Below, one piece after another: positions 1 through 14,534 of a DNA stretch of 64,000 nt. A program made the position numbers and the translations under genes. The notes under the pieces were generated by a model, which was not told the origin of the DNA, did not search any database, and worked only from the letters and a program-made list of their open reading frames with translations. Source of the DNA: Candidatus Dojkabacteria bacterium (lineage in GTDB: Bacteria; Patescibacteriota; Dojkabacteria; SC72); NCBI GenBank assembly GCA_050943415.1, contig JBMNPD010000001.1:4317-68316 (forward strand), in the 5' to 3' direction. Within the stretch, counting starts at the first letter, position 1. Each line of letters begins with the position of its first letter.

Positions 1-3000
1 GTTGCGAAAGGAGAGAATAAAGAATGTACAATAACTAATACTAAATACGGTTCATTAACTATTGTTAAGGATGCAACACCAAGTAGTAATCAAGAATTTA
101 CTTTCACTACAACAGGAGATGGATTGTCAGGATTTACATTGATAGATAATTCAGATACTTCTAATCCAAGTAAAGAATTTAAAAATCTTAAGGCAGGAAC
201 ATACTCAGTCGCAGAAACAGTACCATCAGATTGGAAGTTGACAAGTGCTACATGTTCTGATGGCAGTCCAGTTTCAGCAATTAATCTCTCTGTAGGAGAG
301 AATATTACTTGTACATTTAATAATGTACAGTATGGTTCAATATTTGGTCATAAATGGGTAGATGCTGATGGATTAGCAGATACAACAAACGATAGAACAC
401 CAGTTTCAGGTTGGACTATTTTCATAGATGCAAATGGTAATGGTGTATGGGATGAAGGAGAGGAGAAAACAACAACAGGTACAGATGGTAAATATTCATT
501 TATTAATTTACTACCAGGTACATATAAAGTTGTAGAACAAATGGAAACAGGTTGGATAGTTTTAGTTGGTGATAGTAAGGTTGTAGAGTTAAGTGCGGGT
601 GAGAATGAGGAGGTTAACTTTGTAAATGTAAAGTTAGGTAGTATTACAGTAAAAAAGAATGTTGATAGTAACGGCGATGGGGATTTAGATGATGATGTTG
701 ATGTAATAGGTTCAGATCAATGGAATTGGACACTCAATAATGTAACTGTAGGAAAAACAGGAACAACTAAGAATAAGTTAGAACCAGGTACATATACAAT
801 TAATGAAACAGATGGCCCAGCCCATTATCATTTTGTTTCATTAACTTGTACAGGTGCAGCAGATAATAGAATTACCATTACGGGGGATACAGCTAAAATC
901 AATTTAGAATCAGGTGAAGATGTAGTATGTACATATAGAAATGCAAGGAACTTAGGAAAGTTAATAATTGAAAAAGAAGTGATTAATGATAATGGTGGTA
1001 GTAAGAAAGCTACAGACTTTTCATTCAAGATAGGAAGTGAGAATCCAATTCAATTTACTCAGAATGGAGATGATGTACTTAAAGGAAGAAATGAATATAC
1101 AAGATATGCAGGTCTCTCCTACACTGTTACAGAACCTGAGGCAGACAGTGATGGATATACAACTACATATAATAATTGTACAAATATTGTAGTTCCTCAT
1201 GGTGGTCAAGCTGTATGTAAGATTACAAATAATGACAACAAGCCATCATTAACTCTTGTAAAAGAAGTTAATAATGATAACGGTGGTACACTAAGTAAAA
1301 CAGATTGGACATTAACAGCAACAGGTCCAACAACAATCTCAGGAGATGGAGGTGCAACCAGTGGAGATAACTTCAAAGCAGGTACATATACATTAAGCGA
1401 AATAGGAAAGACAGGTGTTGATGTATCAGGATATGAGGCAGGTAAATGGAGTTGTACAAACAATATTGTAGTGAATGAAAATAATCAGATAACACTAGGA
1501 TTAAATCAATCTACTGTATGTAAAATAGTAAATGATGATAAAGCACCTTCCTTAGAGTTGATTAAAGAAGTAAATAACAAGTTTGGAGGAAATGCAAAAG
1601 CAACAGATTGGACATTAACAGCAACAGGTCCAACAACAATCTCAGGAGATGGTGGTGTAACAAGTGGTAATGATTTCAAAGTAGGTACATATACATTAAG
1701 TGAAAGTGGAAATGTTACTGGATATAGTGCAAGTGATTGGAGTTGTACAAACAATATTGCAGTTAATGAAAACAATCAGATAACATTAGGATTAGGTCAA
1801 AGTACAAAATGTACTATTACTAATAGTGATATTCAGCCAACACTTAAACTTGTTAAGACAGTTGCAAATAATCATGGTGGAGATAAGAAAGTAGCAGACT
1901 TCAATCTTTACATTGGAAATACAAAAGTTGATAGTGGTGTTGCTACAGGCGTAAATGCAAACACAGAATATACTGTAAGCGAAGATCAGCTACCAGGATA
2001 TAGTGCATCAGTTTGGGGTGGAGATTGTAGTGCAGAAGGAAAGATTACTTTACTTCCAGGAGATAACAAGACTTGTACAATTACAAATAGTGATATTGCT
2101 CCTACCCTTAAGTTAGTTAAATCAGTAACTAATGATAATGGTGGTAAATTAGAAGCAAAGGATTGGACATTAACAGCAAAAGCAGGAACAGAAGAATTTA
2201 GTAATCTCGGTGATGCAGGAACAGTACATACTGTCAAAGCAGGAGTTGGTTATGTCTTAAGTGAATCAACAGTTGCAGGTTATGCTTCTGAGGGTTGGAA
2301 ATGTGATAAAGGAACATTGGATGGTAATACAATCACATTAGGTTTGGCTGAGAATGCAACTTGTACAATTACAAATAACGATATTGCACCAAAACTAACA
2401 TTAAACAAGATAGTTTTAAATAAATATGGTGGGAACAAAGTAGAATCAGATTGGACACTCTATGCAAAACAAGGGGAAGTAGTAGCATTGTCAGGAAAAG
2501 GTGCTGAAGGAGATAATGATGTAGTAAGTGGTGAGACATTCCAAGCAGGATCATATACTCTTTCTGAAAAAGGTGTATTAGGATATGATGCAAGTGATTG
2601 GAGTTGTACAGGAACAGGTTCATTAAAAGGTAATGTAATCACATTAGGAATTGGTCAAGAAGCAATTTGTAGTATTACAAATACTGATAGACCAGCAGGA
2701 TTAACAGTAATTAAAGAAGTTATTAATGATAATGGAGGTAAAGCAACAGCAGATGATTTTGATATTAGGTTAAATAAGGAAAAATTAGAATTTAAACCAT
2801 GGACAGGAGGCGTCGGACAATATACCTTTACTTATGCTTCTACTCCAAAAGTACAATCTAATACAAAATATACACTAACAGAGATTGATCATCCTGATTA
2901 CAAAGAAGGAGAATGGAGTTGTAAGGATAATAAGACAGGAAATGAAATTACTCACCCATTTACTTTAGTAGAGGGTCAGAGTGTAACCTGTACAATTACA

Positions 3001-6000
3001 AATGATGACATTGCTCCTACCCTTAAATTAGTTAAATCAGTAACTAATGACAACGGAGGTACATTAGGACCTAAAGATTGGACATTATCAGCTACAGGTC
3101 CTACCCCAATTTCAGGAGATGGAGGTGCTACAAGTGGTAGTAACTTCAAGGCAGGTACATACACATTAGGTGAGGTAGGAAAAACAGGAGTAGATGTATC
3201 AGGGTACGAGGCAGGTAAATGGAGTTGTACAAACAATGTTACAGTTGATGAAAACAATCAAATAACATTAGGATTAAATCAATCTACCGTATGTACAATT
3301 GTAAATAATGATATTGCTCCTAAACTAACAATAGTAAAGCATGTAGATAATGAAGGAAATGATGGTACAAAGAAAGCAGAAGATTTTAAGATAATGGTAG
3401 ATGGAGAAAAAGTATCAGAACCTAGTTTCCAAGGCTCAGAAGAAGGTGTAATAGTAACTTTGAATGCAGGTGAATATAAAGTAACTGAGGAAGAAGATAC
3501 AGAAAACTACACAGCTTCATATAGTAAAGATTGCTCTGGAACAATAAATGTTGGTGAAGAGAAAACATGTACAATTACCAATACAGGTATAGATCATGAA
3601 CCAACAATTGAAGTAACTAAGAATGCTGATAAGACATCAGTAAAAGAAACAGGAGAAGATGTAATCTTTACATTTACAGTAAAGAATACAAGTAAAGTAG
3701 ATACTGTAACAATTCTCTCTTTAGTTGATACAGTTTTTGGCACATTATCAGGTAATGATAATTGTAAAGTTGGAACAGAATTAGCACCTAATGCAACCTG
3801 TTCATTTACATTAACCAAGAAGATTAGTGGAGATTACTCTGGTCCAGACCACTACAACAAATTTACAGTTGAGGCAAAAGATGAGGAAGGAAATAAAACT
3901 GATGATAGTGATGACCAAACAATTACATTTACAGATGAAAAACCATCAGTTGAAGTACTAAAGACAGCAGGTGTTACTGAAATTCCAGAAACAGGTGGAG
4001 AAGTGGAATTCACATACAAAGTTACAAATACAGGATTAGAGAAAGTAACAATAACATCATTGGAAGATGACGTATTTGGAACCTTAACAGGAGATGATGA
4101 TTGTAAAGTTGGAATAGAGTTAGAAGCAGGAAAGAGTTGTGAATTCAAACAAACATTTACAATTGACCCTACTACACCAGGAGATCCAAATGCAGCAACA
4201 TCTCACAAGAATATCTTTACAGCAACTGTAGAAGATAATGAAGAGAATGAAGCAGAAGATAGTGATGAAGAAGAGATTAAACTAACACCAGTACCATCAT
4301 TGAAATTAGTAAAGAAAGTTGTACATAAATACAATTCAGACGAGACAATCACTGCAGCAGATTGGACACTATCAGCAAAAACAGAAGATGACGAAGGTAT
4401 CAGCTATGCAGGTGATACAGATAAGTTTGAATTTGTAAAAGCAGGAGAAGAATATTCACTCTCTGAAACAGGTGAATACATGAGTCAATTTGAACCAAGC
4501 GCTTGGAGTTGTACAGGAGGTGAATTAGTAGGTTCTACACTTAAACTTGCAGCGACAGATGATGTTGTATGTACTATAACAAATACAGCATTACCTGGAA
4601 CAATTAAGATATACAAAGATGTAGTATATGGTGATACAGACATATACTCATCAGACGAATTCGAAGTTAAGGTAGACAGTGATACTGAATCACAGAAGAT
4701 TACTGATACTGAGGAAGATCCTAAAGTAGCTGAATTCACAAATCTTGATGCAGGTGAATACAATCCTGAAGAAATCAATGTACCAAATGGATACAGAGCA
4801 TTGGGTTGTTATCCAAGAGAAGAAGATCAAGATTATACTGTAGGAAATGGAGAAACATTAGAATTTGTATGTCTAAATGAAGTAATTGAACCACTCCTAG
4901 AGATTGAAAAAGAGAATGATGCAGCAACAGCTAAGTACGCAGGTGACCAGGTTACATACACAATAACAGTAACAGCACCAGAAGATGAAGATAATGAGAG
5001 TAAATATCTTCTAAACAATGTTGAAGTATTTGATCTCGCACCAGCAGGATTTGACTACAACAGTGGTACATGGAGTGCAATTTCTTCAGTAAGAGGAGAT
5101 ATTACTGGAATTACGACAGTAGAACCTACATACAATGGTACAGATTATGCAAAATGGACACTAGGTAATATGGAAGAAGGAGAAATAGTAATCTTGAAAT
5201 ACACAACAACTATCTCCTTAACCCAAGATCCAGGTACATATCCAGATATTGCATGGGTAAAAGGAGTATCATTAGCAAACAGCAATGTCCTTGGAAATGT
5301 AAGTACAGGTGCAGATACACCATTCGTAGGAACTAAAGTACAAGTAATTGCTCCTGATGAAATCGAAGAAGGAGAAGTATTAGGTGCATCTACAATAGTT
5401 AGACTACCTAGCACTGGAGCAAGTACATATCTAACATTAGGAGGATTAATAACTATGCTCGTAGGTTTACTAATAGCTATGTTTGGTAGCAAAAAACAAA
5501 GAAAGAGTTCATTAAAACTTAGCTTACTAACAGCAGTTGCATCCCTACTCTTCCTACCATTCTATGTACATGCAGCAGAATATTTAGATGTAAAGATAGA
5601 ACAACCAAAAACACCTACTAACATCTCTAAATTTGAGATAGGCTTTGTAGCTATGTCTACAAGTCCTGAAGCTGTTAAAGTAGAATGTTTTGAGGAAGGT
5701 AAACCTACTCCATTCCAAACAGTAAATGCTTCAACAGGAAATTGCTTAGTAGATGTAAAAGCAAGTGGTACCTACAAATATTATGTTAAAGCTACAGTAG
5801 GTGGAGAAGAAAAAGATTCTGATACTGTGGAAGTAACTGTAAATCTTGAGAAGCCACAAGCTGTCCTAGATTACTCAAAAACAGGAAATACTCTTTCTTT
5901 CAAAACTGCAAATGATGGTATTACAAAACATGTCCAGATATTTAGATCAGAAAAAGTATCATTTACTGCAAACGCTTCAACATTAGTACATAGTATGACT

Positions 6001-6450
6001 GTTCTTCCAAATACCACATATACTTGGACAGATGGCTCAGCAGAATCAGGAAAAACATATTACTACGCTTTAAGAGCAGTAGATGCTTACGGTAATCTCT
6101 CCCCTATCATTTCAGATAACGAAGTTATTACTGTAGTAGAAAAAGCAGGAACAACAACTACTCAAACAGGACAGGTGGCAGGTGCTATCTCTATGACAAC
6201 ATCAGGAACAACGGCAAAGGATACAACAGGATTAGAAGATGCAGAGGTTAAGGGAGATACAGATACTACTGGCGAAGAGACAGAAAATACAGATGTTGAA
6301 AAGAGTGATGCAGAAACACAAGAATCAGAAGATACTGCAGAAGAAGAATCAAAGAAAGTATCAATATTCAAGAAATACTGGTACCTCTGGATAGCTGGAC
6401 TTCTTGTCCTAGTTGGTGGTATATATAAATATGTCAAAAGAGAAAGGTAA
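1..6450 (+). CDS. Giant repetitive cell-wall-anchored surface protein (adhesin-like). It is 5'-truncated by the window edge: the frame is open from nt 1. It carries about 11 Cna-B/SpaA-like ~95-aa Ig-fold repeats and DUF11-like repeats, an LPSTG sorting signal at nt 5404-5418, then a further ~320-aa module.
   Basis: Frame 1 has no stop from nt 1 to 6450. The translated repeat '..APTLKLVK.VNNDNGG..DWTL.A.G...C.ITN.D' recurs about 11 times. DUF11-like 'TKNADKTSV..GEDV.FTFTV.NT' repeats are present. LPSTG is followed by a hydrophobic stretch and a KKQRK tail. Confidence 0.85.
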   Translation, partial: VAKGENKECTITNTKYGSLTIVKDATPSSNQEFTFTTTGDGLSGFTLIDNSDTSNPSKEFKNLKAGTYSVAETVPSDWKLTSATCSDGSPVSAINLSVGENITCTFNNVQYGSIFGHKWVDADGLADTTNDRTPVSGWTIFIDANGNGVWDEGEEKTTTGTDGKYSFINLLPGTYKVVEQMETGWIVLVGDSKVVELSAGENEEVNFVNVKLGSITVKKNVDSNGDGDLDDDVDVIGSDQWNWTLNNVTVGKTGTTKNKLEPGTYTINETDGPAHYHFVSLTCTGAADNRITITGDTAKINLESGEDVVCTYRNARNLGKLIIEKEVINDNGGSKKATDFSFKIGSENPIQFTQNGDDVLKGRNEYTRYAGLSYTVTEPEADSDGYTTTYNNCTNIVVPHGGQAVCKITNNDNKPSLTLVKEVNNDNGGTLSKTDWTLTATGPTTISGDGGATSGDNFKAGTYTLSEIGKTGVDVSGYEAGKWSCTNNIVVNENNQITLGLNQSTVCKIVNDDKAPSLELIKEVNNKFGGNAKATDWTLTATGPTTISGDGGVTSGNDFKVGTYTLSESGNVTGYSASDWSCTNNIAVNENNQITLGLGQSTKCTITNSDIQPTLKLVKTVANNHGGDKKVADFNLYIGNTKVDSGVATGVNANTEYTVSEDQLPGYSASVWGGDCSAEGKITLLPGDNKTCTITNSDIAPTLKLVKSVTNDNGGKLEAKDWTLTAKAGTEEFSNLGDAGTVHTVKAGVGYVLSESTVAGYASEGWKCDKGTLDGNTITLGLAENATCTITNNDIAPKLTLNKIVLNKYGGNKVESDWTLYAKQGEVVALSGKGAEGDNDVVSGETFQAGSYTLSEKGVLGYDASDWSCTGTGSLKGNVITLGIGQEAICSITNTDRPAGLTVIKEVINDNGGKATADDFDIRLNKEKLEFKPWTGGVGQYTFTYASTPKVQSNTKYTLTEIDHPDYKEGEWSCKDNKTGNEITHPFTLVEGQSVTCTITNDDIAPTLKLVKSVTNDNGGTLGPKDWTLSATGPTPISGDGGATSGSNFKAGTYTLGEVGKTGVDVSGYEAGKWSCTNNVTVDENNQITLGLNQSTVCTIVNNDIAPKLTIVKHVDNEGNDGTKKAEDFKIMVDGEKVSEPSFQGSEEGVIVTLNAGEYKVTEEEDTENYTASYSKDCSGTINVGEEKTCTITNTGIDHEPTIEVTKNADKTSVKETGEDVIFTFTVKNTSKVDTVTILSLVDTVFGTLSGNDNCKVGTELAPNATCSFTLTKKISGDYSGPDHYNKFTVEAKDEEGNKTDDSDDQTITFTDEKPSVEVLKTAGVTEIPETGGEVEFTYKVTNTGLEKVTITSLEDDVFGTLTGDDDCKVGIELEAGKSCEFKQTFTIDPTTPGDPNAATSHKNIFTATVEDNEENEAEDSDEEEIKLTPVPSLKLVKKVVHKYNSDETITAADWTLSAKTEDDEGISYAGDTDKFEFVKAGEEYSLSETGEYMSQFEPSAWSCTGGELVGSTLKLAATDDVVCTITNTALPGTIKIYKDVVYGDTDIYSSDEFEVKVDSDTESQKITDTEEDPKVAEFTNLDAGEYNPEEINVPNGYRALGCYPREEDQDYTVGNGETLEFVCLNEVIEPLLEIEKENDAATAKYAGDQVTYTITVTAPEDEDNESKYLLNNVEVFDLAPAGFDYNSGTWSAISSVRGDITGITTVEPTYNGTDYAKWTLGNMEEGEIVILKYTTTISLTQDPGTYPDIAWVKGVSLANSNVLGNVSTGADTPFVGTKVQVIAPDEIEEGEVLGASTIVRLPSTGASTYLTLGGLITMLVGLLIAMFGSKKQRKSSLKLSLLTAVASLLFLPFYVHAAEYLDVKIEQPKTPTNISKFEIGFVAMSTSPEAVKVECFEEGKPTPFQTVNASTGNCLVDVKASGTYKYYVKATVGGEEKDSDTVEVTVNLEKPQAVLDYSKTGNTLSFKTANDGITKHVQIFRSEKVSFTANASTLVHSMTVLPNTTYTWTDGSAESGKTYYYALRAVDAYGNLSPIISDNEVITVVEKAGTTTTQTGQVAGAISMTTSGTTAKDTTGLEDAEVKGDTDTTGEETENTDVEKSDAETQESEDTAEEESKKVSIFKKYWYLWIAGLLVLVGGIYKYVKRER
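1206..1800. repeat. Two tandem ~290-bp intragenic repeats encoding near-identical Ig-like domains. A third copy lies at 2976-3290.
   Basis: Near-identical nucleotide strings (e.g. 'ggtaaatggagttgtacaaacaat' at ~1443 and ~3211). The spurious antisense ORFs 1206-1463, 1506-1775 and 2976-3257 translate to near-identical peptides. Confidence 0.8.
5479..6450 (+). other. In-frame distal module of the giant ORF. It has a cryptic signal-peptide-like segment (MFGSKKQRKSSLKLSLLTAVASLLFLPFYVHA|AE), Fn3-like domains, an acidic T/E/D-rich linker and a C-terminal TM anchor (YWYLWIAGLLVLVGGIYKYVKRER).
   Basis: The internal ATG at 5479 is in frame. A positively charged n-region is followed by an h-region and a VHA-A cleavage-like site. 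A 'GKTYYYALRAVDAYGNLS' Fn3-like signature is present. The ORF ends with a hydrophobic helix and a basic tail. Confidence 0.5.
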
Positions 6451-7105
6451 GATAAATAAAAAGATACTACTAGGAGTACTCCTACTCCTAGTAGGTCTTT
6501 CTGTCCTTGTAGCTACATACTACCCAGTAATTAAAGCATATATTTCCCAATACAGATCCCCTGCTCCATCCACTACGAATGTCACAATTGCTAAAAACGA
6601 TAGCGAAGTAACAAAGAATGTTACTACAGAAACAGAGCAAGTATCTCTCGATTTTAGCTTTGGATTGTATATCCCTAAAATTAAATCTAACAGTAAAGTT
6701 GTAAAAAATATCTCTCCATATGATGAGAATGAATACATTAAAGCCCTAGAAAGAGGTGTAGCCCATGCAAGAGGTACATACACACCTAATGTTAGTGGTA
6801 ACGTATTTCTTTTTGCTCACTCAGCAGTAAACTTCTATGAAAGAAGAAAATACGATGTATATTTCTACCTACTTAATGAACTTAAGAAAGATGATGAAAT
6901 ATATGTAAGCTATGAAGGTAAAATCTACAAATATTTAGTATCAGAAGTAAAAATAGTAGACAAAACAGAAACAAAATATTTAGGCAACTATGACACAAAA
7001 GATACACTAACACTCATGACATGCTATCCTGCAGGTACAGATTGGAAGAGAACAGTAGTCATAGCTCATCGAGATGAAACTCAACCAATCATAGAGAACA
7101 TTTAA
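6431..7105 (+). CDS. srt: Sortase (transpeptidase). The ATG at 6431 is the preferred start over the TTG at 6413, and it overlaps the last ~20 nt of the adhesin gene.
   Basis: N-terminal TM segment. Catalytic His in 'LFAHSA', Cys in 'TLTLMTCYP' (the TLxTC motif) and Arg in 'RTVVIAHR'. Confidence 0.85.
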   Translation: MSKEKGKINKKILLGVLLLLVGLSVLVATYYPVIKAYISQYRSPAPSTTNVTIAKNDSEVTKNVTTETEQVSLDFSFGLYIPKIKSNSKVVKNISPYDENEYIKALERGVAHARGTYTPNVSGNVFLFAHSAVNFYERRKYDVYFYLLNELKKDDEIYVSYEGKIYKYLVSEVKIVDKTETKYLGNYDTKDTLTLMTCYPAGTDWKRTVVIAHRDETQPIIENI

Positions 7106-7797
7106 CAACACTTCTTACTTTTAGTCTCCTTAATATCTACTCCACCAAACAGTGCAGTACCAAATATTTCTAAAACAGGCTTTTCAATATCTCTCTCCTT
7201 TAGTTTAGTATCCCAACCACCAAATACTCCATTACCATTTGTAACTACTCTACAATTTTGAGGAACAATGATATCTGCTCCTCCAAAAACAGCATTAACC
7301 TCTAACTTAGCACCACCCTTTGCAACCTTTACCTCACTTAAATCTAAATCATATGCACCAAAAACAACATCAATCTTACCACCTGTAAAATTATCAGAAA
7401 CCAACCTCTTCTCTACTCCCCAGAAAACAGCAGACTCATTAATCCTATCCTTTGTAGAAACATTAGAAGTAGATACTCTCTCCTCTGATGATTTATCATC
7501 CTTTAATATAATGTAGAGACCAGCAACTACAAAAAGAATTGGCCAGAAATATATCCAAATATTAAAATCAAACAGATTATTTGCCAAAAGTAACAAACCA
7601 ATTAAGGAAACAACAACACCTGTTCTAGCATTCTTGTACAAAATCCTATCAATACCAATAACTATCAAAATCACAGGCCATAATTTCCAGATTAAATCCA
7701 ACAAATCTATGTTAATAAATGCCCATCTATCTAGGAACATAATACCTCCTAAAAAGATGAAAAGTAATCCCCAAAAAATCTTACTACTATTCTTCAT
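7102..7797 (-). CDS. LiaF-like (DUF2154) membrane protein with a cell-envelope stress sensor accessory domain.
   Basis: N-terminal multi-TM region followed by a repetitive beta-rich C-terminal domain ('VFGG..D' repeats) typical of the LiaF/YvqF family. Confidence 0.55.
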   Translation of the reverse strand: MKNSSKIFWGLLFIFLGGIMFLDRWAFINIDLLDLIWKLWPVILIVIGIDRILYKNARTGVVVSLIGLLLLANNLFDFNIWIYFWPILFVVAGLYIILKDDKSSEERVSTSNVSTKDRINESAVFWGVEKRLVSDNFTGGKIDVVFGAYDLDLSEVKVAKGGAKLEVNAVFGGADIIVPQNCRVVTNGNGVFGGWDTKLKERDIEKPVLEIFGTALFGGVDIKETKSKKCC

Positions 7798-7828
7798 AGC
7801 ACAGAAAATATTAATTTAAATTAAAACT

Positions 7829-8140
7829 TTACTTTTTACTCTTTTTCTTAGTATCAGAAACACTCTCTTTCTTTACTGATTGTGCAAATGTATCAAATTT
7901 TTCTTTCATCTCAGCACTGTTTTCCTTTACTATATCATCAGAATCCTTAGCAATACTTGATTTAGAAGGAATGATTGCCCAAAGTATTAAATACATAAAA
8001 ATGCCGAAACCTCCTGTACTCATAGATAGAAACACATAAAGCACTCTCACTATTGTGGGATCAATCTCAAAGTATTCCGCTATTCCTCCACACACTCCTG
8101 CAATCATCTGATTCTCTTCAGATCTATACAATCTTTTCAT
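7829..8140 (-). CDS. pspC: PspC-domain protein (phage-shock protein C family).
   Basis: 'MIAGVCGGIAEYFEIDPTIVRVLYV' PspC signature followed by a TM helix. Confidence 0.8.
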   Translation of the reverse strand: MKRLYRSEENQMIAGVCGGIAEYFEIDPTIVRVLYVFLSMSTGGFGIFMYLILWAIIPSKSSIAKDSDDIVKENSAEMKEKFDTFAQSVKKESVSDTKKKSKK

Positions 8141-13832: not shown

Positions 13833-14534
13833 CTATTCTTCGTTTGTTAAACAATTAACAATGGAATCAATATGTGCTTGTGTTGTATCAAATATAGGAA
13901 TATCTATATCATTCTGTTTAATTAACATCTCTATTTCAGTACAACCCAATATAATTCCTTCGATTTTTGCTTCTTTAATCATTTCATTAATTACTTTAAT
14001 GTAATATTCCTTTGATTCTTCTTTGATTATTCCTTTACATAACTCATTAAAAATTATTCTATCTATTTCATCAATAGTAGTTGATTCTTTAGAAATTGAA
14101 ACATTAAGACCATTATCTGCTAATCTATCTTTTAGAAAATCTTCCACCATTGTATATTTGGTTCCGATTAATCCTACATTTAATATTTCTTTCTCTTTAC
14201 ATTTTTTAGCTACTGAATCAGCTATATGAATGAGTGGTATATTAATTTTACTTTGTATGAAGTCTGCTAATTTATGCATAGTATTGGTAGCAATTACAAT
14301 ATAGTCAGCACCTGCTTGTTCAAGAAGTATAGCTATATTAGCAAGTTCAGTACCTATTTCTTCCCATTTCTCTTCTAACATTAACTTCCTGATGTCTTCA
14401 AAATTGACATTGTAAATAATTAATTTTGCTGAATTTAAACCACCTAAAATTTCATTTACTTGTTTATTTATTCTTTCATAATAATGAACAGATGATTCAT
14501 AACTCATACCACCTATAATACCTATTGTTTTCAT
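13833..14534 (-). CDS. Aspartate racemase (Asp/Glu/hydantoin racemase family).
   Basis: 'IGIIGGMSYESS' and 'ILGCTEI' catalytic cysteine regions. Confidence 0.8.
   Translation of the reverse strand: MKTIGIIGGMSYESSVHYYERINKQVNEILGGLNSAKLIIYNVNFEDIRKLMLEEKWEEIGTELANIAILLEQAGADYIVIATNTMHKLADFIQSKINIPLIHIADSVAKKCKEKEILNVGLIGTKYTMVEDFLKDRLADNGLNVSISKESTTIDEIDRIIFNELCKGIIKEESKEYYIKVINEMIKEAKIEGIILGCTEIEMLIKQNDIDIPIFDTTQAHIDSIVNCLTNEE

Follow-up and report, generated by a model that had tools for sequence, protein, structure and literature searches.

A mid-protein LPXTG sorting signal followed by a second export signal: conserved fusion of giant adhesins to an Ig-Fn3 membrane module in Dojkabacteria and other Patescibacteria

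Introduction

Must a sortase substrate end with its sorting signal? In a canonical substrate the LPXTG signal takes up the extreme C-terminus and its basic tail is followed by a stop codon; neither feature was found in the locus analyzed here. The locus lies in a 64,000-nucleotide stretch of DNA (hereafter the window) from a Candidatus Dojkabacteria bacterium (NCBI GenBank assembly GCA_050943415.1, contig JBMNPD010000001.1, positions 4,317 to 68,316 of the forward strand). In this window the sorting signal of a giant adhesin is continued, in the same open reading frame (ORF), by a second module that starts with a segment resembling a signal peptide and ends with a membrane anchor, and a sortase gene overlaps the end of that frame.

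A preliminary description of the locus, made from the sequence, had proposed three origins for this arrangement: natural fusion of a sortase substrate with a membrane-tethered partner, internal initiation of translation at the ATG at 5479, or a lost stop codon. The comparison with related loci presented below showed that the fusion is real and conserved, and we consider it probable that the ORF is a selectively maintained polyprotein cut by sortase and by signal peptidase I.

Results

Structure of the junction

A single plus-strand ORF, already open at window base 1 and free of internal stops in frame 1, runs to the TAA at 6448-6450; upstream, the adhesin ORF extends past the window start. The sorting signal reported in the preliminary description (LPSTG, hydrophobic helix and KKQRK, without a stop) was confirmed by the translation and by a match to PF00746 above its cut-off (Table 1), and the score against TIGR01167 (LPXTG) was slightly under threshold (14.0 vs. 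15.9). Past the KKQRK tail the frame stays open for 314 codons, to 6447, and the LPSTG motif lies 348 residues from the end of the protein. No other LPXTG-type signal was found within the 64-kb window.

A Kyte-Doolittle scan of the tail delimited exactly three hydrophobic segments, here termed TM1, TM2 and TM3 (TM, transmembrane), and the helices modelled by AlphaFold2 (AF2) agreed with them, as did the segments of the preliminary description. The AF2 model of the whole tail comprised both helices and the module, with the LPSTG region at low confidence. The second segment belongs to an internal signal peptide (5488-5574) in which n-, h- and c-regions can be recognized as SKKQRKSSLK, LSLLTAVASLLFLPFY and VHA, with a signal peptidase I cut predicted at VHA/AE, between 5574 and 5575 (slashes between residues mark predicted cuts). 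The earlier suggestion that this signal peptide reuses the basic tail of the sorting signal as its n-region was borne out by the pattern itself and by alignment with the signal peptides of stand-alone homologues. The topology of the tail is self-consistent: the adhesin is outside, TM1 crosses from out to in, the loop is inside, TM2 crosses from in to out, the module is outside, and TM3 crosses from out to in, leaving the final KYVKRER in the cytoplasm.

Conservation of the fusion among relatives

A profile of the distal part was scanned against species-representative genomes, and each match was extended by script to the flanking stop codons. A total of 31 loci were recovered, the closest (44-45% identity) from Candidatus Dojkabacteria and the others from Shapirobacteria, Daviesbacteria, other Microgenomates/Patescibacteria and apparently mislabelled 'Gammaproteobacteria' metagenome-assembled genomes (MAGs), which places the window in a Dojkabacteria-like member of the candidate phyla radiation. 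The adhesin was fused to the module in the same way in 21 of them (loci L007 and L008, and 19 further loci), each with [L/M]PxTG, a helix, a basic loop, then another hydrophobic segment that closes with AXA, the module, and finally a helix with its basic tail. The preliminary description had proposed checking whether orthologues stop after the basic tail: these 21 run on, and the adhesins of the unfused relatives do stop. In L007 (NCBI MAG contig DHAX01000036) a single frame joins the adhesin to the module by way of ITLPNTGASTYLTLGALIMMILGLVSLLFKPFKKLNYALLASVMMFGMFAAILPTKVSA/GF, and the junction of L008 is alike; the corresponding database protein of L007, P0002, starts at MMILG, inside TM1, only because scaffold gaps break the ORF upstream. 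Identity between the module of the window and other Dojkabacteria modules was 43-47%, and the fusion has therefore survived long divergence.

All of 1.84 billion cluster representatives were searched with a profile, which returned 1589 members at E <= 1e-3 and 554 at E <= 1e-30, so the module family comprises at least 554 clusters at 50% identity. Among the best 150 representatives, the module formed the very C-terminal end of 96 proteins, 369-3052 residues long, and the remaining 54 were stand-alone proteins of approximately 320 residues. A motif of the form [L/M/F]PxTG followed by a hydrophobic stretch was found directly upstream of the module in 94 of the 96 fused representatives, in 90 of these as LPxTG. 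The fused state of 21/31 genome loci and 96/150 representatives supports the natural fusion of a sortase substrate with a membrane-tethered partner that had been listed among the possible origins. The view expressed there that the layout is not standard for an LPXTG gene holds generally; within Patescibacteria, however, the layout is common.

Features of both the loop and the second hydrophobic segment were also retained. The loop between TM1 and TM2 was net positive in all 84 fused representatives analyzed (median +4, minimum +2). Before the cut site of the second segment, all 21 fused genome loci showed Ala at position -1 and V, A, L or T at -3, usually with Pro or Gly a few residues before the AXA site, and this site directly precedes the most conserved stretch of the family, xLSVRIEQPK[S/T]PTN, as it does in the stand-alone signal peptides. 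Residue use at -1 and -3, as located by a crude site finder, was alike in fused and separate representatives; the length of the uncharged stretch, compared between signal peptides and TM helices, was too noisy a measure.

Two side observations concern these collections. Many MAGs with a Patescibacteria-type locus (L021, L024, L026, L031, L032 and others) are titled 'uncultured Gammaproteobacteria bacterium', apparently because one MAG collection was given the wrong taxonomy throughout. Moreover, two of the 96 fused representatives, P0255 (...GAATGTNTTW...) and P0263 (...LVITGQ...), have lost the LPXTG consensus and kept both helices and the module; sortase processing has possibly been abandoned in them.

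The junction in independent assemblies

The sortase protein of the window was found, identical, on six contigs from six different samples. Two loci from independent assemblies of other sequencing runs, L001 and L002, matched the window base for base between 5300 and 5700, and the product called ahead of the sortase gene in them, 919 or 845 residues long, runs into that gene. The agreement of these assemblies at the junction and the presence of the fusion in orthologues exclude an artefact; the lost stop or sequencing/assembly error considered in the preliminary description was thus discarded.

A stop or frameshift exactly at the TM1-TM2 junction was observed in two relatives (L014, 9960-10010; L015, 1620-1700), where it gave rise to the 'stand-alone' module calls P0005 and P0006. 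These loci were evaluated as natural unfused Dojkabacteria variants, now the less likely reading, and were not accepted as evidence for them: their coverage is 1-2x, their genes are fragmented, and the breaks are single-base indels with respect to the close relatives L018 and L019 (several of them in L015), probably errors.

The two-gene form and the state changes between both forms

In unfused loci the upstream adhesin ends with LPXTG, helix, basic tail and stop, and the module is a gene of its own, with the sortase downstream. Stand-alone modules start with an ordinary signal peptide, e.g. MYKLITRGLQAILAILVTTFALMGHAHA/AK or MHKIVTTITAIVFGLMLTGTVFA/AV, and end with a TM helix and a basic tail. 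That the distal part can exist as a separate protein was therefore borne out by other lineages, in which it is a stand-alone gene product of approximately 320 residues whose N-terminal signal peptide aligns with the internal one of the window. The gene order adhesin, module, sortase was invariant in fused and separate loci, and wherever a related locus extended far enough, the module was directly followed by a sortase (TLMTC[W/Y]P).

The unfused module starts within approximately 30 nucleotides of the adhesin stop, in a different frame, and the two genes overlap in L011 and probably in L012. In L012 the adhesin ends in ...GIMVRRRND and a stop, with the probable module ATG inside AATGACTAA; in L011 it ends in ...RRIYV and a stop, overlapping the module start ATGTATAA. 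An indel of one or two bases in such an overlap suffices to fuse or to separate the two frames. The fused locus L037 retains, as the Arg codons AGG AGA, what corresponds to the Shine-Dalgarno-like AAGGAG of L012, and the ATG is lost.

In a midpoint-rooted neighbour-joining tree of the modules, unbootstrapped and without support values, the fused state comprised all seven Dojkabacteria loci (the window included), all 11 loci of a Shapirobacteria-like clade, L028 and the pair L036/L037, and three clades had separate genes. The distribution of fused and separate clades on this tree therefore implies at least three to four state changes, with the state being stable within large clades.

Possible translation starts within the junction

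The sequence AGGAGG occurs at 5439-5444, 10 nucleotides upstream of the ATG at 5455. It was evaluated as an internal ribosome-binding site, without support: the window contains 36 copies of AGGAGG (18 in shuffled sequence), four of them in this ORF and most inside genes, and a Shine-Dalgarno core of at least four nucleotides was found upstream of just 4 of the 35 long ORFs in the 64-kb window. The one perfect AGGAGGT precedes the ORF at 13833..14534 on the minus strand. The ATG at 5479, where initiation had been proposed, is preceded by no more than a four-nucleotide match (AGGT). In Shapirobacteria-type junctions no Shine-Dalgarno motif was found ahead of the Met. The stretch between TM1 and TM2 lacks any in-frame start codon in L036 and L037, and in these two loci the module cannot be translated except within the fusion.

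The distal module

After the predicted cut at VHA/AE the distal part comprises approximately 290 residues and ends in YWYLWIAGLLVLVGGIY and KYVKRER, without an LPXTG motif. It was modelled with AF2 from an alignment of 122 sequences (mean predicted local distance difference test score, pLDDT, of 82; >90 over residues 1-190), which resolved two beta-sandwich domains, one immunoglobulin (Ig)-like and one fibronectin type III (Fn3)-like, followed by a linker and the C-terminal helix (Table 1). The Fn3-like domains, acidic linker and terminal TM anchor of the preliminary description were thus all recovered, the first of these at the fold level by AF2 and Foldseek. In the 122-sequence alignment the Cys residues of domain 1 are invariant or nearly so. 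Domain 2 opens with a near-invariant Y-S-K, with the Lys codon at 5878-5880; at least 90% of the sequences share Y102 and K104, and the Y-x-K lysine was present in all genome loci inspected. The same domain contains GKTYYYALRA.D..GN.S in the window and GKTYYYA.RA.D..GN.S in the family.

Foldseek searches of the module against the PDB retrieved LAR Fn1-2 (6tpv, E 1e-6), PTP-delta Fn1-2 and the Ig domains of the phage lambda/T1 tail-tip protein J; with regard to a specific function, the fold search returned generic tandem Fn3/Ig matches alone. PF24489 (Ig_J_second) was matched by five of nine module relatives (best E 4.6e-5), and all module relatives are named 'hypothetical protein' in the databases. 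The characters of sortase-assembled pilins, namely an LPXTG motif of their own, a WxxxVxVYPK lysine and a CnaA/CnaB fold, were not found in the module, whose conserved Y-S-K lysine is at most suggestive in this respect. An LPXTG before the C-terminal helix was present in just one or two of 122 stand-alone modules; as a rule, therefore, the module is held by its membrane anchor and is no substrate of the sortase, and the interpretation of its C-terminus as a degenerate LPXTG signal was dropped on the same count. In a few stand-alone modules LPQTG (P0047, L031) or LPQKG (P0008) stands directly before the C-terminal helix, and as judged by these motifs the module itself may be a sortase substrate in such rare lineages.

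The sortase gene and its neighbourhood

The overlap of the sortase gene with the ORF end that had been described was confirmed as one of 20 nucleotides, with the gene product matching PF04203. Its catalytic set is present, with the His of FAHS, the Cys of TLMTC and a downstream Arg (WKRTVV). The sortase scored below the cut-off of every class-specific NCBIfam model (SrtD-type, 74.6 vs. 140; class C, 70.7 vs. 160; class D, 57.1 vs. 165; class E, 45.5 vs. 160), and the generic model TIGR01076 was the sole NCBIfam model passed (61.2 vs. 39.35).

Immediately beyond the sortase, at 7102-8140 of the window on the minus strand, lie two envelope-stress genes, one for a LiaF-like membrane protein and one for a protein with a PspC domain; the position of PspC is kept in L007, L008 and L014, and PspC may be functionally linked to the sortase locus. 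Together with these two, the neighbours desulfoferrodoxin, MnmA, NifU, NifS and MurB were syntenic with related loci.

Table 1. Coordinates of the features of the polyprotein ORF and of the sortase gene in the window
Feature	Position	Strand	Evidence
Giant adhesin body	1..5403	+	Translation; Pfam SpaA-like prealbumin-fold repeats, DUF7507, DUF11-like C-terminal domain
LPSTG sortase recognition motif, predicted cut T/G	5404..5418	+	Sequence; PF00746 (Gram_pos_anchor) 23.3 bits vs. cut-off 20
TM1, hydrophobic helix of the sorting signal, ASTYLTLGGLITMLVGLLIAMFG (23 residues), putative stop-transfer role	5419..5487	+	Hydropathy; AF2 helix, tail-model residues 29-48
Basic loop SKKQRKSSLK, cytoplasmic	5488..5517	+	Sequence; shared by the sorting signal (charged tail) and the internal signal peptide (n-region)
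Internal signal peptide, h- and c-regions, LSLLTAVASLLFLPFYVHA	5518..5574	+	Aligns with N-terminal signal peptides of stand-alone homologues; AF2 helix, tail-model residues 54-70
Module domain 1, Ig-like beta sandwich, conserved Cys pair	5584..5844	+	AF2 model m0deb3f18f3e2, residues 6-92, pLDDT >90
Module domain 2, Fn3-like	5866..6144	+	AF2 residues 100-192; Foldseek tandem FnIII/Ig matches, e.g. 6tpv E 1e-6
Linker, Thr-rich then acidic, disordered, possible wall-spanning stalk	6145..6378	+	AF2 pLDDT <50, residues 194-262; composition
TM3 YWYLWIAGLLVLVGGIY, basic tail KYVKRER and TAA; C-terminal membrane anchor	6379..6450	+	Hydropathy; AF2 helix, residues 271-292
Sortase gene, N-terminal membrane anchor	6431..7105	+	PF04203 E 5e-24; ATG 6431; overlaps the polyprotein ORF end by 20 nucleotides

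The adhesin body

Pfam matches in the adhesin body were dominated by SpaA_2 (E 1e-157, 12 stretches), along with SpaA_4, SpaA and DUF7507. Full-length orthologues (L018, approximately 2300 residues; L023, approximately 1950 residues) both begin with an N-terminal signal peptide, which in complete adhesin orthologues is MKFNKKSFLKSLYKVSTVLFLVGYNFAPPFLA. LPXTG-like sequences without a hydrophobic stretch after them were observed inside the body, namely IPETG at approximately 4102-4116 of the window (adhesin residue 1327) and VPETG three times in L033; these probably belong to DUF7507-type repeats and are not sorting signals.

A von Willebrand factor A (VWA) domain was detected at 4682-5791 of L014, in the N-terminal part of the adhesin region of this Dojkabacteria relative. 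Tip adhesins of sortase-dependent pili carry a VWA domain. It was not reported by Pfam in L018, and the N-terminus of the adhesin analyzed here lies outside the window. In another related Dojkabacteria population (L008, 1960-2000; also L009 and L010) a frameshift or stop interrupts the frame of the adhesin approximately 150 nucleotides upstream of a 463-residue ORF that holds the module together with LPNTG and the DUF11-like end. Three assemblies of one project show this interruption at the identical place; a genuine split, a pseudogene, phase variation and an error common to the assemblies are all conceivable.

Discussion

Proposed processing of the polyprotein

These results establish the fusion, its conservation, the gene order, the topology signals and the folds. 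On this basis the ORF is a natural fusion that is likely maintained by selection and functions as a polyprotein, and we infer two cleavages. The precursor would be exported by the Sec system via its N-terminal signal peptide; TM1, the sorting-signal helix, would halt transfer, leaving the basic loop in the cytoplasm, and TM2, the former signal peptide of the second gene, would restart translocation so that the Fn3 module is exported and then held in the membrane by TM3. The adjacent sortase would cut LPST/G and transfer the adhesin to an acceptor, presumably a peptidoglycan precursor, and signal peptidase I would cut after VHA, freeing a module that is still anchored by TM3. The cell would end up with the two surface proteins that the two-gene layout also yields, in a strict 1:1 ratio and through one translocon, plus a discarded hairpin of approximately 57 residues. 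The first cut draws indirect support from the motif retained in 94 of 96 fused representatives and from the constant adjacency of a sortase, and the second is made likely by the AXA site kept in 21/21 fused genome loci. Moreover, the invariant placing of the module, with the substrate on one side and the sortase on the other, and its repeated fusion argue that it cooperates physically with them, and we infer that it is a functional partner in the sortase system, where it could serve as scaffold, stalk or sortase acceptor.

Several points weigh against the proposed processing. A cleaved internal signal peptide after a TM hairpin is uncommon in bacteria, and if TM2 were left uncut the remnant would be a 3-TM protein. 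In the AF2 tail model neither LPSTG nor the rest of the sorting signal contacted the module, and the module of the window had no significant match in Pfam (including fn3 and Ig families), NCBIfam or PDB sequences. A Met is kept at the ancestral start position in many fused relatives (e.g. KSMAKK, KKTMLT), and the state changes were counted on a tree that carries no support values.

Alternative explanations

The reading of the junction as a sequencing or assembly error, or as a recently lost stop in a decaying gene, would be in line with the run of six A at 5491-5496, where a shift of one base brings a stop within 6-8 codons, and with the junction breaks seen in the low-coverage assemblies L014 and L015. 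Nevertheless, identical junctions in independent assemblies, a fusion kept at 43-47% identity and in 96/150 representatives, and the single-base character of the breaks at 1-2x coverage leave this explanation with hardly any credibility. The module might also be made mainly or additionally from an internal start at ATG 5455 or 5479, with the read-through fusion as a by-product, an option compatible with a polyprotein and in agreement with the AGGAGG ahead of ATG 5455 and with the retained Met just mentioned. It is nonetheless unlikely, since the lack of a stop codon obliges every ribosome on the adhesin to continue into the module, since a motif as frequent and as often intragenic as AGGAGG carries little weight, and since the short match before ATG 5479, the Shapirobacteria-type junctions and the start-less L036 and L037 all speak against it. 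Initiation at ATG 5479 is thus neither needed nor supported, in a genome that hardly uses Shine-Dalgarno motifs; internal initiation may add copies of the module in some lineages, is not required, and cannot be the sole route.

The two remaining alternatives accept the fusion and differ in the fate of its parts. In one of them TM2 is a permanent helix, and the 3-TM protein left after the sortase cut displays the Fn3 module, as the preliminary description had anticipated. The three hydrophobic segments and the positive loop, which that description had correctly recognized, do fit a polytopic topology. However, a permanent TM2 could freely lose its cleavage features, yet these are kept: the AXA site is present in 21/21 fused loci, usually with the upstream Pro/Gly, and TM2 is homologous to stand-alone N-terminal signal peptides predicted to be cleavable. 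A permanent helix is for this reason rather improbable, and a stable 3-TM product probably does not form. In the other alternative the module is the sortase acceptor, the Thr of the adhesin LPST being joined in cis to the Y-S-K lysine of domain 2 or to the new N-terminus of the module; the hairpin would then be excised in a splicing-like manner, and the adhesin would be covalently tethered to a membrane-anchored Fn3 stalk and not to peptidoglycan. The constant location of the module between substrate and sortase, the physical cooperation suggested by a repeated and stable fusion, and the conservation of the Y-x-K lysine, which loosely recalls the YPK pilin motif, are in its favor. The Fn3/Ig fold is not that of a CnaA/CnaB pilin, though, and the canonical pilin motif is absent; AF2 did not dock the LPSTG region on the module, although with its low confidence there the model says little about a reaction in cis, and with the peptidoglycan synthesis gene murB next door the usual acceptor is probably available. 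Joining in cis thus appears very unlikely, and so does the stalk-tethered adhesin that would result from it. Processing by sortase and signal peptidase I, with release of two separate surface proteins, is the reading retained in what follows.

Comparison with known systems

The junction shares with the canonical Gram-positive sorting signal the pentapeptide, a helix of approximately 23 residues, a positive segment and an adjacent sortase that carries His, Cys and Arg, and differs from it in its mid-protein position and in the basic tail that doubles as an n-region leading into a second ectodomain. The locus also resembles sortase-dependent pilus/adhesin clusters, which combine a tip adhesin of SpaA/CnaB-type domains with small Ig-like subunits and a dedicated sortase: here, too, one operon holds a large LPXTG protein built of SpaA domains, a small partner of two beta-sandwich domains and a sortase of its own, and this sortase scores nearest to the class D and class C models. 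Unlike in those clusters, the partner lacks an LPXTG of its own (with one or two exceptions in 122) and a canonical pilin motif, has an Fn3/Ig fold, is TM-anchored and is fused to the adhesin.

Three further systems offer partial parallels. In midcut-by-XrtH proteins (NF033207) a sorting signal that is usually C-terminal is placed mid-protein and splits the precursor in two; their enzyme is an exosortase and their signal is PEP-CTERM-like, so the likeness is one of analogy only. The adhesin scored 33.8 bits against NF033207 (cut-off 45), at residues 1216-1269 in the DUF11-like domain, far from the junction, and is not a member of that family. In the Bradyrhizobium FbcH cytochrome b/c1 precursor, an internal signal sequence follows membrane helices, and signal peptidase frees a C-terminally anchored extracytoplasmic protein. 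The proteins are unrelated, and in the locus analyzed here a second enzyme, the sortase, is predicted to act just upstream, so that a short hairpin would be excised. Finally, the class GN 'marine' sortase (TIGR03784) forms a dedicated system with a single adjacent target, resembling the present one in that one sortase lies beside one large substrate; the match to TIGR03784 was of 32.5 bits against a cut-off of 158, and those systems have neither the intervening Fn3 module nor the fusion.

The Pam pili of candidate phyla radiation (CPR) bacteria (bioRxiv 10.64898/2026.03.03.709456) were considered and set aside as a different system based on donor-strand exchange; sortase is mentioned in that work as background only. 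A literature search for an internal LPXTG combined with a signal peptide, in CPR bacteria or elsewhere, found no description, with incomplete coverage that leaves room for an earlier account. The locus is accordingly a real, conserved variant of the sortase/LPXTG system for which no prior description was found.

Implications

The rule for sortases is that the sorting signal ends the substrate. Here, Dojkabacteria, Shapirobacteria and other Patescibacteria routinely place it mid-protein, and behind it come another export signal and a partner protein that is conserved. An unnamed family of Ig-Fn3 membrane proteins thereby emerges as the third component of these sortase loci, and its repeated fusion to the substrate provides Rosetta-stone evidence that the module works with the adhesin or with the sortase. 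The layout also carries a warning for annotation, as such ORFs will be taken for ordinary 'LPXTG anchor' proteins or be cut at a Met codon inside them, as in P0002.

If the proposed processing is true, the ORF would be a natural bacterial polyprotein processed by two different membrane-associated enzymes; if the module were instead the acceptor, the locus would represent a CPR-specific way to anchor surface fibres. CPR bacteria live attached to host cells, and the giant adhesins of these loci and the manner of their anchoring therefore bear on episymbiosis.

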